Source: Escherichia coli (lineage in GTDB: Bacteria; Pseudomonadota; Gammaproteobacteria; Enterobacterales; Enterobacteriaceae). Taken from it: 64,000 bases of DNA. Position 1 is the first letter of the stretch, and every line of letters begins with the position of its first letter. The stretch lies in NCBI RefSeq assembly GCF_003334785.1, contig NZ_QOWV01000001.1. The stretch is one strand, 5' to 3'. This document shows positions 11,279-45,859 of the stretch, piece by piece. A program made the position numbers and the translations under genes. The notes under the pieces are model-generated. The model saw nothing but the letters and a program-made list of their open reading frames with translations. It was not told the DNA's origin and ran no database searches.

Positions 11279-12532
11279 CTATTTTTGCGCCGATTCTTTA
11301 CTGTCAGCTTTCGTTTCTAGTTCATCGTTATCGCTGAAAATACCATGACCTGAGTTCAACAACATTGAAACGAGCATATCATTATTAATCTCTTCACCAT
11401 TTAAAACTCGCGCCAGAATTTCGCTGCCAAACAGTTGCGGTGAGAGAATGATATCCGGATGTACCATCTTAATCTTATTCAGGTTTTTGCTATCACTGAC
11501 GGCGAGAACTGTTTTGACATCACTGCTCATATCTTTTGCCGAGAGTACAACAAACGCGTTATCTGCATCGTTATCACTCAGCGCCAGAATGGCCCGGCAA
11601 CGATCGATTCCCGCTTTCTTTAATACAGAACTGTCATTACTGTCACCGGGGATAACATCAGCATTATCGCCTAAGCGTTGCTCAAGTTGCTTGATATCAT
11701 CTTCAGGCAAGTTGCTGATAACCGTTACGTTTTGTCCGCGTTGATTCAGTTGCAGGATCGTATTGATGGCGAGAATCGAATGTCCGCAAACAATAAAATG
11801 ATCTTTACGATGCATTGTATGATTGTTTCCTTTTACAAGTTTGTTGAATCCCCCGCGGATAAGCGGACCAAAAATTGAGGTCATAGATGTGGCAAAAACG
11901 GTAATGCCGGAAATAATGACCGAAATAGTGAACAATCGTGCTGATTCAGAAACAGGGACAATATCGCCATAGCCGACGGTTGACATGGTTTCTATCGAAA
12001 AATAGAACGCGGTCATCAAACTTTCTATTCGCGGATTAAAACCTTCGCTTAAATAAAGCGCACCGTAGGTTGAGTAAAACAGTAATGTCGTGAAACTAAT
12101 AAATGCAAAAATTGTCCCGGCTGCGGCGCTACTGTGGGAGAAGTCTTTGCGCAGTATCAGCAAAAACACCAGCGTAAAAATGCAAAATCCAATACTAAAT
12201 TTCAGCCAGGGATAAAAATGCAGGGTGTAAATTAGCGCTATCAACAACAAAATGATACTGATTGCCCATGCGAGCTTTGCCCGGAACAGTAAGCCAATGG
12301 AGTTCAGGACAAGAAAGACGCCGAGCATAAAGAGTGGGGCGTTTGCCAGCAAGGAGAGATCCAACTCTGAAAATGCTTTGATATGGAAAATATCAAGCAA
12401 ATTGACCGACATACCATAGATTGTTTTAAAAATAAGCAATCCATTTAAAAAGACGGCCAGCGCGAGAATGTCGTGCCGAAGGGTCACCCATAAATTTGTT
12501 GCTGTTTGTTTGAATGTAGCCCAGTGACTCAC
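11279..12532 (-). CDS. kch: Voltage-gated K+ channel Kch (TVGYGD filter, C-terminal RCK/TrkA domain)
   Basis: METMSTVGYGD selectivity filter; start taken as GTG 12532 (MSHWATF..., 417 aa), alternative GTG at 12550. Confidence 0.9.
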   Translation of the reverse strand: MSHWATFKQTATNLWVTLRHDILALAVFLNGLLIFKTIYGMSVNLLDIFHIKAFSELDLSLLANAPLFMLGVFLVLNSIGLLFRAKLAWAISIILLLIALIYTLHFYPWLKFSIGFCIFTLVFLLILRKDFSHSSAAAGTIFAFISFTTLLFYSTYGALYLSEGFNPRIESLMTAFYFSIETMSTVGYGDIVPVSESARLFTISVIISGITVFATSMTSIFGPLIRGGFNKLVKGNNHTMHRKDHFIVCGHSILAINTILQLNQRGQNVTVISNLPEDDIKQLEQRLGDNADVIPGDSNDSSVLKKAGIDRCRAILALSDNDADNAFVVLSAKDMSSDVKTVLAVSDSKNLNKIKMVHPDIILSPQLFGSEILARVLNGEEINNDMLVSMLLNSGHGIFSDNDELETKADSKESAQK

Positions 12533-12780
12533 TGATACCTCTGTAACCACAATTTTGTTTAATTATCTTAGCGTGCACATTTTCTGAACATACATGCAGC
12601 GCGTGAATGTGTTAAACAATAGTAGATGACTTTATCCGCAGTAATCAAAGGATTTGAGCGAGCAACTGTACCTCAGGAAAGGTCATTTTTCCTGAATATG
12701 CTCACATCATATAAAGAAATACAGATAAAGTTATTATCTGCTTGTGGTGGTGAATGCACTGACCGGCTATAAGGAAAGGC

Positions 12781-12809
12781 CAAACAAGAACACGGTTGCA
12801 AAAACCGTG
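12781..12809 (-). terminator. Putative yciI terminator
   Basis: cacggtt/aaccgtg hairpin 12791-12809 followed on the minus strand by T-rich ttcttgtttg. Confidence 0.45.
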
Positions 12810-12831
12810 CCCTTAAATATTGAATCTCTAT

Positions 12832-13128
12832 TCAGAACACTTTCTTAAATGGTTTCACTGAAACGTGTTCATAGACTCCTGCCGCTACGTACGGGTCAGC
12901 ATCGGCCCAGGCCTGAGCTGCTTCCAGCGATTCAAATTCAGCAATAACGGTTGAGCCAGTAAATCCCGCAGCCCCTGGATCGTTACTGTCTACCGCTGGC
13001 ATTGGACCAGCTGTCAACAAACGACCTTCATCATGCAGTAACTGTAAACGTGCTAAATGTGCCGGACGAACGGAAAGGCGTTTTTCGAGGCTATCAGCTT
13101 TGTCTTGAGCGTAAATAACATACAACAC
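12832..13128 (-). CDS. yciI: YciI-like protein (Dabb fold)
   Basis: 98 aa from GTG 13128 with AGGAG SD; ORF-track N-terminal extension rejected. Confidence 0.85.
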
Positions 13129-13275
13129 GGGCACAACTCCTTGTTCGGGAAAGTTGTAAAGTACGTTATTTGAAAGGGCGAAGATCTGCAACGGAAAGAT
13201 GATGTCTTTGTTAAGGCCATGCATAAAGTAAGGGTAATTACGCCAAAAATGACATTTTCACTGATCCTGATCGTC

Positions 13276-13310
13276 TTGCCTTATTGAATATGATTGCTAT
13301 TTGCATTTAA
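13276..13310 (+). promoter_or_regulatory. tonB promoter region with Fur-box-like AT-rich dyad
   Basis: tgaatatgattgctatttgcatttaaaatcgagacc about 40-75 nt upstream of tonB ATG; tonB is Fur-regulated (established knowledge); exact box not verified. Confidence 0.45.
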
Positions 13311-13351
13311 AATCGAGACCTGGTTTTTCTACTGAAATGATTATGACTTCA

Positions 13352-14071
13352 ATGACCCTTGATTTACCTCGCCGCTTCCCCTGGCCGACGTTACTTTCGG
13401 TCTGCATTCATGGTGCTGTTGTGGCGGGTCTGCTCTATACCTCGGTACATCAGGTTATTGAACTACCTGCGCCTGCGCAGCCGATTTCTGTCACGATGGT
13501 TACGCCTGCTGATCTCGAACCGCCACAAGCCGTTCAGCCGCCACCGGAGCCGGTGGTAGAGCCAGAACCGGAACCTGAGCCGATCCCCGAACCGCCAAAA
13601 GAAGCACCGGTGGTCATTGAAAAGCCGAAGCCGAAACCTAAGCCAAAACCGAAGCCGGTGAAAAAGGTACAGGAGCAGCCAAAACGCGATGTCAAACCCG
13701 TAGAGTCGCGTCCGGCATCACCGTTTGAAAATACGGCACCGGCACGCCTGACATCAAGTACAGCAACGGCTGCAACCAGCAAGCCGGTTACCAGTGTGGC
13801 TTCAGGACCACGCGCATTAAGCCGTAATCAGCCGCAGTATCCGGCACGAGCACAGGCATTGCGCATTGAAGGGCAGGTTAAAGTTAAATTTGACGTTACG
13901 CCGGATGGTCGCGTGGATAACGTACAAATCCTCTCAGCCAAGCCTGCGAACATGTTTGAGCGTGAGGTGAAAAATGCGATGCGCAGATGGCGTTATGAGC
14001 CGGGTAAGCCAGGCAGTGGGATTGTGGTGAATATCCTGTTTAAAATTAACGGCACCACCGAAATTCAGTAA
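13352..14071 (+). CDS. tonB: Energy transducer TonB
   Basis: 239 aa from ATG 13352 (MTLDLPRRFPWPTLLSVCIHGAVVAGLLYT...), (EP)n and (KP)n proline-rich repeats, C-terminal TonB domain. Confidence 0.96.
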   Translation: MTLDLPRRFPWPTLLSVCIHGAVVAGLLYTSVHQVIELPAPAQPISVTMVTPADLEPPQAVQPPPEPVVEPEPEPEPIPEPPKEAPVVIEKPKPKPKPKPKPVKKVQEQPKRDVKPVESRPASPFENTAPARLTSSTATAATSKPVTSVASGPRALSRNQPQYPARAQALRIEGQVKVKFDVTPDGRVDNVQILSAKPANMFEREVKNAMRRWRYEPGKPGSGIVVNILFKINGTTEIQ

Positions 14072-16980: not shown

Positions 16981-17487
16981 TTATTTCTTCGCTTCTACGC
17001 CATCAGTTTCAGAGCGAATTAAAAATTTCTCAGTTGTTTGCGGAATATTCTGAATCAGCCAGTCGGCCATTTGCTTTTCCTCATTTAAAATCGCTTCGAT
17101 GGTTGGAATTGAAGCTGTATCACCGGCATTTTTTGCTGCTGCTAATAGTGAGGTGTAACAGGCGATTTCAAATTGCTCGAAGACATATCCGCTAATAGAG
17201 CCTTTGACTATTTCATCAGAAGGGAATATACCACCGATTGACTGCCCAAGCGCAGCCATTTTACTCATGGAATCTTTAATGACTGAACGTGAAATGTCAT
17301 TACGATCAAGAATAGTTTCCAGTTGAACAATCTGGTTTTTGGTTTCACTAAGATGTTGTTCAATACGAGCGCGTAGTTCAGGATAATTATCTATACGGCT
17401 GGCCATGGATTCAAGCATAGATTCGGCTTGCTTTTCCATTGCGTGGGCGTCACGTAACCAGTCATGATAATGTTCAATACGATTCAT
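16981..17487 (-). CDS. yciE: Ferritin-like DUF892 stress protein YciE
   Basis: 168 aa; paralogous to adjacent yciF. Confidence 0.92.
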   Translation of the reverse strand: MNRIEHYHDWLRDAHAMEKQAESMLESMASRIDNYPELRARIEQHLSETKNQIVQLETILDRNDISRSVIKDSMSKMAALGQSIGGIFPSDEIVKGSISGYVFEQFEIACYTSLLAAAKNAGDTASIPTIEAILNEEKQMADWLIQNIPQTTEKFLIRSETDGVEAKK

Positions 17488-17532
17488 GAAAATGTCCTCT
17501 TTATAAAATGACTAAAAGTTAAAATTCATATT

Positions 17533-18033
17533 TCAGGCTTTATTTTCGGCTTTCTTATTTACGTTATTAATGGCCAGATCAGTCAGTTTGATGTCGGTGG
17601 CCTTTTCTTCTTCCAGGGTTTCTTTCAGAAGCTTCGCTGCTTTACGGTAACCTAATTGTTCAGCCAGCGTCGCTAATGTCCCGTAACTGGCAATCTCATA
17701 ATGCTCGACTTTCTGTGCTGCGGCAATCAGTGCGGCATCACGCACTTCGTTTTTCTCGGTACTTTCGATGACCTCATTAGCTTCTTCAATAAGACCTTCC
17801 ATTGCCACACATTTCATGCGCTTAATTTTCAGGTTCGATTCGGACTCCACAACTTGATCAATACGTTCAATCTGTCCATGAGTTTCCTCGAGGTGCGCAT
17901 GAAAAGCCTGACTTAATTTTTCATTTGATGTTGCTCTTGCGAGTTTTGCCAGTGCCCGGGTTAATTGTTTTTCTGCGCTGTAGGTATCTGAAAGCAGGTG
18001 AATAAATACATCTTCAATGGTCTTCATATTCAT
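17533..18033 (-). CDS. yciF: Ferritin-like DUF892 stress protein YciF
   Basis: 166 aa from ATG 18033 (MNMKTIEDVF...); ORF-track extension to 18081 rejected. Confidence 0.92.
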   Translation of the reverse strand: MNMKTIEDVFIHLLSDTYSAEKQLTRALAKLARATSNEKLSQAFHAHLEETHGQIERIDQVVESESNLKIKRMKCVAMEGLIEEANEVIESTEKNEVRDAALIAAAQKVEHYEIASYGTLATLAEQLGYRKAAKLLKETLEEEKATDIKLTDLAINNVNKKAENKA

Positions 18034-18118
18034 ATTTTTCTCCAGTGAAATCACTGCGAGCCATACGGCCCGCAGATGCAATTATCTTTATCAGCTGATA
18101 TTAATAATTAACGGTGAA

Positions 18119-18298
18119 TCAGGATTTGCCTGATTTATTACCACCGCTTTGTTGACCGCCTTTTTTACCCGCTTCAGATGCGCGTTGCGGATCATTTTTA
18201 AAATTACCGCCGCTATGCTGACCGCCTTTACGGCCTGCGTCGGATGCCTTCTCACGGTCTTCGGCGAAATTTCCTGAACCACCACGATGTTCGGCCAT
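18119..18298 (-). CDS. yciG: KGG-repeat stress protein YciG
   Basis: 59 aa from ATG 18298 (MAEHRGGSGNFAED...), with repeated ...SDAGRKGGQHSGGN / ...SEAGKKGGQQSGGN units. Confidence 0.88.
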   Translation of the reverse strand: MAEHRGGSGNFAEDREKASDAGRKGGQHSGGNFKNDPQRASEAGKKGGQQSGGNKSGKS

Positions 18299-36093: not shown

Positions 36094-37092
<999 letters not shown>

Positions 37093-37422
37093 TTTCTTGC
37101 GTTATTTTCGGCACCTTTTATGTAGCGAAGGTGCCGGAATATATTCTCTTTTGTTACTTATTTCTATACCGTGCACAATATTTTTATCCCTCATATTTAT
37201 AGGGTAAATTACCTGTAAAGTAGTGTCTAATTACCCGCCTCGCAAACTCCAGTTTTCAAATATCTATTTCAGGTCAAAAGATTGAATTATTCACTGGAGA
37301 CGATTCGTAAATTCGCTGGATTTTTGACTAAAGTTTCTTTAGGATTTGTCTCATCGTATGATTAATTACACCAATCGTTCAACGTCTTGCTGATAAGTGA
37401 TGGCGATTATATGAGGTTAGCA

Positions 37423-37551
37423 ATGCCTTCTGGAAATCAGGAACCCCGCCGCGATCCTGAATTAAAACGTAAAGCCTGGCTGGCGGTTTTTCTTGGTTCT
37501 GCACTTTTCTGGGTGGTTGTCGCACTGCTGATTTGGAAAGTGTGGGGATAA
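37423..37551 (+). CDS. ymiA: Small membrane protein YmiA (42 aa; 46 aa if ATG 37411 is used)
   Basis: ATG 37423 with GAGG SD 6 nt upstream; MPSGNQEPRRDPELKRKAWLAVFLGSALFWVVVALLIWKVWG, one TM helix; too short for the ORF track. Confidence 0.5.
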   Translation: MPSGNQEPRRDPELKRKAWLAVFLGSALFWVVVALLIWKVWG

Positions 37552-37553
37552 CT

Positions 37554-37721
37554 ATGGTCGGTCAGGAGCAACTGGAGTCGTCACCATTATGCCAGCATAG
37601 TGACAATGAAACAGAAACGAAACGGGAATGTTCCGTCGTTATTCCAGACGACTGGCAACTAACATCGCAGCAGCAAGCCTTTATAGAACTGTTTGCTGAA
37701 GATGATCAGCCGAAACAATAA
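37554..37721 (+). CDS. yciX: Small acidic protein YciX (55 aa)
   Basis: ATG 37554 three nt after ymiA stop with GGGGA SD; MVGQEQLESSPLCQHSDNETETKRE...; ORF-track start 37533 is a TTG extension. Confidence 0.5.
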   Translation: MVGQEQLESSPLCQHSDNETETKRECSVVIPDDWQLTSQQQAFIELFAEDDQPKQ

Positions 37722-37834
37722 TTATCATCATTCTTATTACCCATTTTTAATGAATTAAAGGGCTTTTAATACACCGCAGCAATAACAGCTTGAGTTATCT
37801 CAACACAAAATAATAACCGTTAAGGGTGTAGCCT

Positions 37835-37930
37835 ATGATCAACACAAATATGAAATATTGGTCCTGGATGGGCGCGTTTTCTCTGTCGATGCTCTTCTGG
37901 GCCGAACTCCTCTGGATCATTACTCACTGA
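37835..37930 (+). CDS. Candidate 31-aa Trp-rich hydrophobic small protein (possibly YmiC)
   Basis: ATG 37835 to TGA 37928-37930, MINTNMKYWSWMGAFSLSMLFWAELLWIITH; followed by a hairpin plus T-tract; weak SD. Confidence 0.35.
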   Translation: MINTNMKYWSWMGAFSLSMLFWAELLWIITH

Positions 37931-37936
37931 TCCTTG

Positions 37937-37967
37937 ACCCCGCTGCGGCGGGGTTGTCATTTGCTTT
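37937..37967 (+). terminator. Putative rho-independent terminator upstream of the acnA promoter
   Basis: ccccgc tgcg gcgggg hairpin followed by ttgtcatttgcttt. Confidence 0.55.
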
Positions 37968-38093
37968 GCCACAAGGTTTCTCCTCTTTTATCAATTTGGG
38001 TTGTTATCAAATCGTTACGCGATGTTTGTGTTATCTTTAATATTCACCCTGAAGAGAATCAGGGCTTCGCAACCCTGTCATTAAGGAGGAGCT

Positions 38094-44921: not shown

Positions 44922-45247
44922 TGAGTGATTCCAACAGCCGTCTGGTCTACTCAACGGAAACCGGACGTATTGATGAGCCCAAAGCGGCCCCTGTACGCCC
45001 TAAAGGCGACGGTGTGGTGCGTATTCAGCGTCAGACCAGTGGACGTAAAGGTAAGGGCGTTTGCCTGATTACCGGTGTCGATCTCGATGATGCCGAACTG
45101 ACAAAACTTGCAGCGGAACTGAAGAAAAAATGCGGCTGCGGCGGAGCAGTTAAAGATGGAGTTATTGAAATCCAGGGCGATAAGCGTGATTTATTAAAAT
45201 CACTACTTGAAGCGAAAGGGATGAAGGTAAAACTCGCAGGCGGTTAA
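44921..45247 (+). CDS. yciH: SUI1/eIF1-like translation initiation factor YciH
   Basis: 108 aa [21 protein letters not shown]...; start overlaps pyrF stop. Confidence 0.9.
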   Translation: MSDSNSRLVYSTETGRIDEPKAAPVRPKGDGVVRIQRQTSGRKGKGVCLITGVDLDDAELTKLAAELKKKCGCGGAVKDGVIEIQGDKRDLLKSLLEAKGMKVKLAGG

Positions 45248-45252
45248 CATAA

Positions 45253-45279
45253 AAAGCCACGGATATATCCGTGGCTTTC
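45253..45279. terminator. Terminator hairpin after yciH (also downstream of convergent osmB)
   Basis: Perfect palindrome agccacggatat/atccgtggct followed by ttcgaatatttt. Confidence 0.75.
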
Positions 45280-45372
45280 GAATATTTTACTGTGCGTATT
45301 ATTCAGTTATTTCGTACTGAACAGAATCAAGCGTATTATAATTGCGAGTCGATAATCGACATTTATTTACGA

Positions 45373-45591
45373 TTATTTACCGACCTGGTGACCAATAACA
45401 CCACCGACAGCTGCACCACCTAATGTACCCAACGTACTGCCATCGGTCAGTACTGCACCGCCTAATGCCCCTGCACCCGCGCCGATTGCGGTGTTGCGGT
45501 CCCGTTTAGACCAGTTAGAACAGGCACTCAGAGACATTGCCAAAGTAATTGCCAGAACAGCCGCGGTCATTTTTTTGCTCGTTACAAACAT
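45373..45591 (-). CDS. osmB: Osmotically inducible lipoprotein B
   Basis: 72 aa; lipobox LSAC, Gly-rich mature region. Confidence 0.95.
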   Translation of the reverse strand: MFVTSKKMTAAVLAITLAMSLSACSNWSKRDRNTAIGAGAGALGGAVLTDGSTLGTLGGAAVGGVIGHQVGK

Positions 45592-45859
45592 AATACTCTC
45601 TCCTGAATTTATGATTCACGGAAGTAAGCTCTCTATAACTATAATAGCTAAGAATAAGCCTGGTGAAATTATTCCGTGAAATCTGCTCGCGCGCAGGGTT
45701 ATATCACGCAGGTGATAATGACTTCCTGTTATATCGCTGATAATAATTTTATATCTTGAGAGTGTTAATAACAGGTAAATAGTCTTAATTATCAACCAGG
45801 AATCATCTTAGAGCGGATGATTTGCCAAACTGCAAATCATCCGTAGAGAAGGGAAATGG

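Follow-up and report, generated by a model that had tools for sequence, protein, structure and literature searches.

The AT-rich kch gene of Escherichia coli and its probable lateral acquisition from a Plesiomonas-like lineage

Kch among described potassium channels

Kch commonly serves as "the" bacterial example of a Kv/RCK channel, and we know of no other K+ channel gene in E. coli K-12. Comparable described systems include the MthK-type RCK-gated K+ channels (PDB 1LNQ and others), whose pore and RCK domain align with residues 158-378 of Kch at E values of ~1e-17 to 1e-18. MthK has two transmembrane helices and is gated by Ca2+, whereas Kch carries extra N-terminal hydrophobic segments. Going by what is established for this family, translation from an internal start codon probably also yields the RCK domain of Kch as a soluble gating ring.

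The published function of Kch has been reviewed by the Kung laboratory. Knockout of kch has no growth phenotype, while gain-of-function mutations, all of which lie within the RCK domain, give rise to K+-sensitive cells and are suppressed by mutations in the filter (PMC2234077). Gain-of-function Kch is toxic in high K+, currents through Kch have never been recorded and the functional evidence is genetic; the role proposed for the channel is the adjustment of membrane potential and not the bulk uptake of K+ (PMC2234077). Additionally, Kch has been implicated in membrane-potential dynamics and electrical signalling in E. coli biofilms (PMC11928028). A lateral origin of kch is already hinted at in the literature, and the lateral-transfer passage of the Kung-lab review states that Kch is unrelated to the channels of Salmonella (PMC2234077). 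In the limited collection searched, no paper was found that names Plesiomonas as a relative of Kch or that describes the insertion site of the gene. For another K+ transport gene of E. coli, trkG, a GC content of 38%, compared with 53% for trkH, has been used as evidence of foreign origin (PMC9898762).

The window analysed here is a 64,000-nucleotide stretch of an E. coli K-12-like chromosome, 99.97% identical to MG1655, which runs from adhE/ychE through opp, cls, kch, tonB, trp, topA and acnA to sap and puu. The copy of IS5U that MG1655 carries between ychE and oppA is missing from the window. The kch gene and the portions of its product are located as follows:

11279..12532, minus strand: kch coding sequence (b1250), 417 aa, GTG start, TAG/TAA stop included, from the open reading frame and annotation
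11816..12532, minus strand: membrane/pore half of Kch, residues 1-239 (GC12 0.395, GC3 0.477)
11963..11980, minus strand: K+ selectivity filter TVGYGD, residues 185-190, seen in the translation
11282..11815, minus strand: RCK/KTN (TrkA_N) cytoplasmic gating domain, residues 240-417, starting at the internal Met240

The kch sequence in the window is 100% identical to that of MG1655, and its GTG start is preceded by a GAGG Shine-Dalgarno sequence. The NCBIfam equivalog NF007828 scores 646.7 bits against the protein (cutoff 425) and covers residues 1-402 of the 417; the title of NF007828/PRK10537 is "voltage-gated potassium channel protein". Hydrophobic 19-mers occur at residues ~22-40, 65-83, 87-105, 109-127 and 203-221, the five clear segments of a crude Kyte-Doolittle scan in which S5 falls under the threshold. 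In the C-terminal half, residues 241-393 are matched by PDB 1ID1 (E 1.4e-92), the crystallised protein of which is the E. coli Kch RCK domain itself, and PF02254 is a precomputed annotation of the Kch protein cluster. The kch gene appears to be a functional and maintained K+ channel gene that encodes a six-TM-type membrane/pore half together with a C-terminal RCK gating domain. The gene itself is a known one, and nothing in it differs from the described E. coli Kch.

Base composition of kch

A sequence-only reading of the window had proposed, by eye, that kch is AT-rich relative to the flanking cls and tonB, with many A/T-rich codons that could indicate horizontal origin or low-expression codon usage. 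The compositional difference is borne out, with a GC content of 0.423 for kch as compared with 0.517 for clsA, 0.544 for tonB, 0.488 for yciI and 0.498 for the window as a whole. By codon position, kch has a GC1 of 0.467, a GC2 of 0.349 and a GC3 of 0.455. In a ranking of the 50 window genes that encode 100 aa or more (kch and 49 others), kch has the lowest GC1 (z -2.49) and the second lowest total GC (z -2.68), yciE alone being lower, and it ranks fifth from lowest in GC3 (z -1.22) and third from lowest in CAI (z -1.39). In a wider comparison of 196 E. coli genes, drawn from the window and five other MG1655 segments, kch falls at the 0.5th percentile for both GC and GC12, at the 7.1th for GC3 and at the 2.6th for CAI.

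Set against the normal range of the neighbouring genes, as the same reading had suggested, the total GC of kch is clearly outside, whereas its synonymous-site GC and CAI lie in the low tail and are no extreme outliers. Each taken alone, GC3 and CAI are 1.2-1.6 SD off the mean, and thus would not by themselves flag kch as foreign. The idea of low-expression codon usage agrees with the weak codon adaptation that is seen (CAI 0.279, Nc 52.8; the CAI weights were built from 35 MG1655 ribosomal-protein/elongation-factor genes).

The source of the deficit was located by computing an expected GC for each gene from its amino-acid sequence and the synonymous usage pooled over the remaining window genes. 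To the GC deficit of kch, -0.087, amino-acid composition contributes -0.060 and synonymous choice -0.027, such that approximately two-thirds of it resides at codon positions 1 and 2 and one-third is synonymous. The AT excess behind the "many A/T-rich codons" is therefore real, but it is mostly a matter of the amino acids encoded and not of the choice among synonymous codons. Ser, Ile, Phe, Asn and Leu are over-represented in Kch, and Arg, Pro, Glu and Gln are scarce. The protein has a FYMINK/GARP ratio of 1.72, compared with 0.85 for the other window proteins, and across the Plesiomonas/Escherichia clade of Kch proteins the ratio is 1.6-1.95.

The possibility that kch is AT-rich merely as the gene of a membrane protein was considered and rejected. 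The link between hydropathy and GC12 in E. coli is weak (r -0.21), and kch falls 2.5 SD below the value that it predicts. This reading also fails at the soluble RCK half of Kch, which is AT-shifted too (GC12 0.427, GC3 0.421). E. coli membrane-like proteins have a mean GC of 0.513 and a GC3 of 0.582 +/- 0.047, as compared with 0.423 and 0.455 for kch.

The composition of kch and of its flanks in different hosts is as follows:

Plesiomonas shigelloides: GC 0.426 in kch and 0.503 in the flank; GC3 0.495 and 0.545
low-GC Plesiomonas lineages: GC 0.33-0.35 in kch and 0.42-0.43 in the flank; GC3 0.26-0.27 and 0.34-0.38
Escherichia species: GC 0.415-0.435 in kch and 0.48-0.51 in the flank; GC3 0.45-0.49 and 0.50-0.53
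Shewanella sp. D64: GC 0.450 in kch and 0.414 in the flank; GC3 0.493 and 0.368
Vibrio renipiscarius: GC 0.456 in kch and 0.451 in the flank; GC3 0.504 and 0.484
Aeromonas schubertii: GC 0.601 in kch and 0.632 in the flank; GC3 0.833 and 0.784

Across these hosts the GC3 of kch follows that of the host, from 0.26 to 0.83, whereas GC1 (0.40-0.49) and GC2 (0.34-0.39) remain low, the exception being a GC1 of 0.57 in the very GC-rich Aeromonas host.

An AT-rich gene may be taken for the fingerprint of a low-GC donor. In this simple form the idea is unsupported, as the flanks of kch in P. shigelloides have a GC of 0.50 and kch is equally AT-rich there. Accordingly, AT-richness is a property of this clade of the gene family and not a donor fingerprint. 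The step from AT-richness to a possible horizontal origin thus arrives at the right conclusion, yet composition alone would not prove transfer, because the nearest donor-like lineage has an E. coli-like GC and an equally AT-rich kch.

Insertion site, distribution and relatives of kch

The kch gene is found in 5420 of 5426 complete E. coli genomes. Its wider distribution was followed in 80 species-representative loci with 10-kb flanks, which were fetched via the conserved neighbour ClsA and in which the neighbouring genes were located by tblastn. All six Escherichia loci have a true Kch ortholog (93-97% identity) between yciI and yciY; these are the loci of E. albertii, E. whittamii, Escherichia sp. 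E1V33 and MOD1-EC7003, and two further "E. coli" species clusters. Between the same two genes, kch occurs in 0/74 loci of non-Escherichia Enterobacteriaceae species, a sample that takes in Citrobacter, Salmonella, Enterobacter, Klebsiella, Raoultella, Kluyvera, Leclercia, Lelliottia, Kosakonia, Cedecea and others. The gap between yciI and yciY is less than 150 bp in 31 of the 68 loci that show both flanks, and many kch-free Enterobacteriaceae keep an intact empty site. The corresponding features of the window are these:

11051..11224, plus strand: yciY, right flank of the insertion site (annotation; found in 80/80 loci)
11228..11254, minus strand: hairpin just 3' of kch, right border of the insert, with the core GGGCACCGCAAUGGUGCCC (-19 kcal/mol, fold z -4.74)
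12533..12831, minus strand: kch upstream spacer of 299 bp, from the yciI stop to the kch start (GC 0.378)
12619..12648, minus strand: promoter-like element TTGATT-18 nt-TACTAT upstream of kch, a putative promoter
12785..12815, minus strand: hairpin just 3' of yciI, left border region of the insert, AAGGGCACGGUUUUUGCAACCGUGUUCUU (-16 kcal/mol, fold z -4.65)
12832..13128, minus strand: yciI, left flank of the insertion site (GC 0.488; annotation and synteny)

When the empty sites of Citrobacter, Salmonella, Kluyvera and Raoultella are aligned with E. coli, the convergent yciI and yciY prove to be separated by a conserved hairpin, GGGCACCGC...GGTGCCC, and the hairpin 3' of kch is the ortholog of this intergenic terminator hairpin of the kch-free species. 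Species with an empty site lack the 299-bp spacer, and their yciI directly adjoins the terminator and yciY. The Escherichia-specific insert is ~1.5-1.6 kb in length and consists of kch, its AT-rich 5' spacer and a few 3' bases. The two hairpins at its borders, 3' of yciI and 3' of kch, resemble each other. A consensus terminator scan of positions 10900-13400 gave no match owing to the lack of a T-run in these hairpins, which were found instead by alignment and folding. No integrase, IS element, tRNA or other mobility gene is seen at the borders of E. coli kch, and flanking direct repeats or a target-site duplication were represented at this site by short chance matches, none of them convincing.

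Upstream of the gene, blastn identifies a block of 37-46 nt (window 12655-12619/12610) that is common to E. coli, P. shigelloides and E. fergusonii, and the kch DNA of E. coli and P. shigelloides is 76.5% identical over the gene and ~30 nt of leader. The form of the TTGATT-18 nt-TACTAT element suggests that it is the promoter of kch. As the upstream block is common to P. shigelloides and E. fergusonii, kch seems to have moved along with its own promoter. The promoter consensus scan chose positions 12615-12587 and not this element.

The closest homolog of Kch outside Escherichia is that of P. shigelloides, which is 83% identical to the E. coli protein, and a homolog search with Kch returned no close matches from other Enterobacteriaceae. 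The description of kch as "eukaryote-like" in the sequence-only reading is a historical label; the close relatives of Kch are all bacterial and give no pointer to a eukaryotic source. In P. shigelloides, as well as in two more divergent and lower-GC Plesiomonas lineages, kch adjoins hcr-hcp-lysO-ybjD. Five syntenic neighbour genes with E. coli orthologs were used to calibrate the identity between the two species, and their products are far less alike (Hcr 44%, Hcp 72%, LysO 58%, YbjD 57% and YbjX 40%) than Kch at 83%. Within Plesiomonas, Kch identities of 73-75% fit the spread of the neighbours (53-86%), the pattern that vertical inheritance in this genus would produce. The Kch of P. shigelloides is closer to the Escherichia proteins (83-86%) than to the Kch of its congeners (74-75%).

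A neighbour-joining tree of 28 Kch sequences, with 300 bootstrap replicates counted as bipartitions, supports the grouping of P. shigelloides with all Escherichia at 100% and that of all Plesiomonas with Escherichia at 92%. Aeromonas, Shewanella and Vibrionaceae fall outside this assemblage, and the placement of E. fergusonii relative to P. shigelloides receives 44% support. On this tree, Escherichia Kch nests within Plesiomonas.

E. fergusonii carries its kch at a site unlike the E. coli locus, where it is flanked by a cytochrome bd operon and pgsA; the leuZ-cysT-glyW tRNA cluster is 148 bp away and an IS66 element ~4 kb. The protein is 81% identical to E. coli Kch and 86% identical to that of P. 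shigelloides. Two insertion sites thus exist in one genus, both of them empty in other enterics, a pattern that vertical descent does not readily explain.

Between E. coli and E. albertii, the dS of kch is 0.97, like that of its neighbours (0.61-1.10), indicating that kch was already present in the common ancestor of the two species. The dN/dS of kch in this comparison, 0.041, is the highest of eight local genes, the others being at 0.004-0.033, and its values overall (0.028-0.041) denote purifying selection. Because kch evolves somewhat faster than its neighbours, its 83% identity to Plesiomonas is still more anomalous. Horizontal origin, which the sequence-only reading had offered on composition, is supported here by evidence of other kinds: the phyletic pattern, the empty sites, the identity to Plesiomonas, the tree and the second copy in E. 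fergusonii.

Origin of kch and its place among potassium transport genes

These observations together make it probable that the AT-rich kch was acquired laterally by Escherichia from a P. shigelloides-like lineage and that it has kept the AT-biased protein composition of its family. The donor would have been a lineage close to P. shigelloides, and a segment of ~1.5-1.6 kb, comprising kch and its own promoter region, would have been inserted after the yciI stop codon and before the yciI/yciY terminator hairpin, in the ancestor shared by E. coli, E. albertii and the related Escherichia species of the sample. E. fergusonii would have gained a related kch separately, beside the leuZ-cysT-glyW tRNA cluster. 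The AT-biased amino acids of the Plesiomonas/Escherichia Kch clade, present in both halves of the protein, would be inherited, with purifying selection freezing the composition, and the synonymous sites of kch would have drifted largely, though not fully, to the host value. The residual deficit in GC3 and CAI would fit a weakly expressed channel gene.

Transfer in the reverse direction is unlikely, and it is less parsimonious than a Plesiomonas-like donor. Here kch would be older in Escherichia and the P. shigelloides allele would have been replaced in situ by homologous recombination, which could account for a P. shigelloides Kch nearer to Escherichia (83-86%) than to other Plesiomonas (74-75%) in two groups of gut dwellers; the grouping of E. 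fergusonii with P. shigelloides, at 44% support, also leaves room for it. However, the divergence of Kch within Plesiomonas is commensurate with that of its neighbours, as for vertical descent, and the sister group is formed by all of the Plesiomonas lineages together (92%). As the Escherichia copies occupy two distinct and otherwise empty sites, an acquisition from outside would still be needed.

It is also improbable that AT-richness itself was the object of selection, with kch and its 5' spacer serving as an H-NS/StpA platform that silences a potentially toxic channel. The low GC of the upstream spacer (37.8%) and of kch (42.3%) would suit such a platform, as would the toxicity of gain-of-function Kch in high K+ alongside a knockout without growth phenotype (PMC2234077), and H-NS silencing is documented for the AT-rich foreign K+ transporter gene trkG (PMC9898762). 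Against this, a literature search of a limited collection found no H-NS data on kch, and the GC3 of kch follows host GC, which speaks against any strong pressure toward AT at silent sites. A silencing platform is in any case compatible with a lateral origin of kch and not an alternative to it.

Very unlikely is an ancestral kch of the Enterobacterales, inherited vertically with many losses and relocated in Escherichia, its AT-richness being that of a hydrophobic and weakly expressed protein: although Plesiomonas belongs to the Enterobacterales with a kch context (hcr-hcp-lysO-ybjD) otherwise syntenic with E. coli, and although kch has GC3 and CAI within ~1.5 SD of E. coli genes and an E. coli-E. 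albertii dS like that of its neighbours, such a history needs the gene to have disappeared from each of the 74 non-Escherichia Enterobacteriaceae species sampled and to have been relocated twice, conflicts with an E. coli-P. shigelloides Kch identity (83%) above that among Plesiomonas congeners (74-75%) and well above that of the five neighbour proteins (40-72%), as well as with the 100% bipartition of P. shigelloides and all Escherichia, and leaves the low GC12 unaccounted for by hydropathy (residual z -2.5) and the soluble RCK half AT-shifted.

A different channel is encoded in the conserved neighbourhood of the kch site, ~2.5 kb away from it, in Salmonella, Citrobacter and Klebsiella, where a Kv-like 6TM channel gene is located between yciU and oppF. 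Its product of 278-293 aa shares the TVGYGD filter with Kch, and has an Arg-repeat S4 helix and a C-terminal Cys4 motif but no RCK domain; local identity to Kch is 27-42%. This channel is absent from the window and from 5422 of 5426 E. coli genomes. Escherichia may conceivably have swapped one K+ channel for another, a tentative proposal in which the yciU-oppF channel, as the ancestral enterobacterial type, would have been lost from E. coli proper and the Kch of a Plesiomonas-like gut or aquatic bacterium captured twice independently, at yciI-yciY and at the leuZ site of E. fergusonii. Were this so, it would point to recurrent selection for the RCK-gated Kch type in the Escherichia niche, and would allow the physiological role and the ligand of Kch to be approached by comparison.

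Several consequences follow for the study of this channel. Phenotypes of Kch are not to be extrapolated to Salmonella or Klebsiella, both of which are without Kch and possess the different channel instead. Where the kch knockout shows no phenotype, low native expression and a possible control by H-NS should be considered. The gene also illustrates amelioration, in that its silent sites follow the host while the positions that determine amino acids hold the ancestral bias. To the lateral origin hinted at previously, the present analysis adds the decomposition of the AT bias, the insertion site with its empty-site controls, a candidate donor lineage and a second acquisition in E. fergusonii. The current understanding of kch is not overturned by these findings, which add detail to a well-known gene.

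Among the K+ transport genes of E. coli, trkG of the rac prophage is AT-rich like kch and is itself a laterally acquired gene. The two differ in their settings: trkG is situated in a recognisable prophage and its modulation by H-NS has been shown, whereas kch is a solitary insert without mobility genes. Unlike the prophage-borne trkG, kch is fixed in essentially all E. coli and is older than the split between E. coli and E. albertii.

The yciI-yciY junction and the surroundings of kch

The K+ channel gene kch (11279-12532, minus strand) lies between yciI and yciY, a junction whose contents differ from genus to genus among the retrieved species-representative loci.

L005-L084, ~9630-9690 (locus coordinates): yciI-yciY junction
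Window 12619-12655: conserved 5' block upstream of kch, TTGATT-18 nt-TACTAT
L094 (E. fergusonii) 10001-11248: kch
L094 11396-11698: tRNAs near kch
L094 3817-6129: IS66 genes near kch

The junction is empty in 31 of 68 loci, and where it is occupied elsewhere it holds unrelated cargo of 0.4-6 kb, including a LeuE-like exporter, a MarR/GNAT protein, an OYE-family reductase, a GGDEF and EAL pair and an Exc2 lipoprotein. In one E. coli strain (L099, 5987-7180), a phage integrase is inserted between kch and yciI.

The short block upstream of kch is common to E. coli, E. albertii, E. fergusonii and Plesiomonas shigelloides, the last having the nearest Kch homolog outside Escherichia. This block is likely a promoter that moved together with kch. 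In E. fergusonii, kch and the leuZ-cysT-glyW tRNA cluster by pgsA are separated by 148 bp. A cytochrome bd operon adjoins the gene, as does an IS66 element; because of these neighbours, it may belong to a small island.

When the segment running from cls through yciY and kch to yciI was used as a query, a total of 14 plasmid places were matched. A 1-kb piece of kch, labelled "ion channel", is carried on a 48-kb "laboratory developed" plasmid (NZ_CP188139.1), and the annotation of strain S1-CAM-01-A places an IS903B-family transposase under the query segment.

Base composition and comparison with MG1655

The sequence-only reading had singled out kch as AT-rich relative to its neighbours; kch is not alone in this, as the window contains several such patches.

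Window 16981-18298: yciE, yciF and yciG

The total GC of yciE (0.406) and yciF (0.431) equals kch in AT-richness or goes beyond it, and the silent sites are far more extreme than those of kch, with GC3 values of 0.337 for yciE, 0.407 for yciF and 0.350 for yciG. By synonymous criteria, yciE and yciF outrank kch as compositional outliers. Low-GC 1-kb bins also occur in the cysB-acnA spacer, which holds ymiA, yciX and ymiC (0.412; 37001-38000), and around osmB and yciT (0.439; 45001-46000).

An IS5U element found between ychE and oppA in MG1655 is missing from the window, where its CTAA target is unoccupied and intact (2957-2960). Besides IS5U, the two sequences are separated by 18 single-base differences over ~62.7 kb, with none in kch.

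The oppF-yciU site and its Kv-like channel

In the window, oppF and yciU are only 52 bp apart. A Kv-like K+ channel gene is found at this site in Salmonella, Citrobacter, Klebsiella, Kluyvera, Raoultella and E. albertii.

Window 9032-9083: oppF-yciU spacer
L006 11877-12719: Kv-like channel gene
L011 11863-12744: Kv-like channel gene
L020 11872-12708: Kv-like channel gene

The encoded channel comprises 278-293 amino acids; its filter reads TVGYGD, its S4-like helix carries an Arg repeat, and a CxxC...CxxC motif lies at the C-terminal end. Its gene is present in only 4 of the 5426 complete E. coli genomes; thus, the common enterobacterial channel is missing from E. coli proper, which possesses Kch instead.
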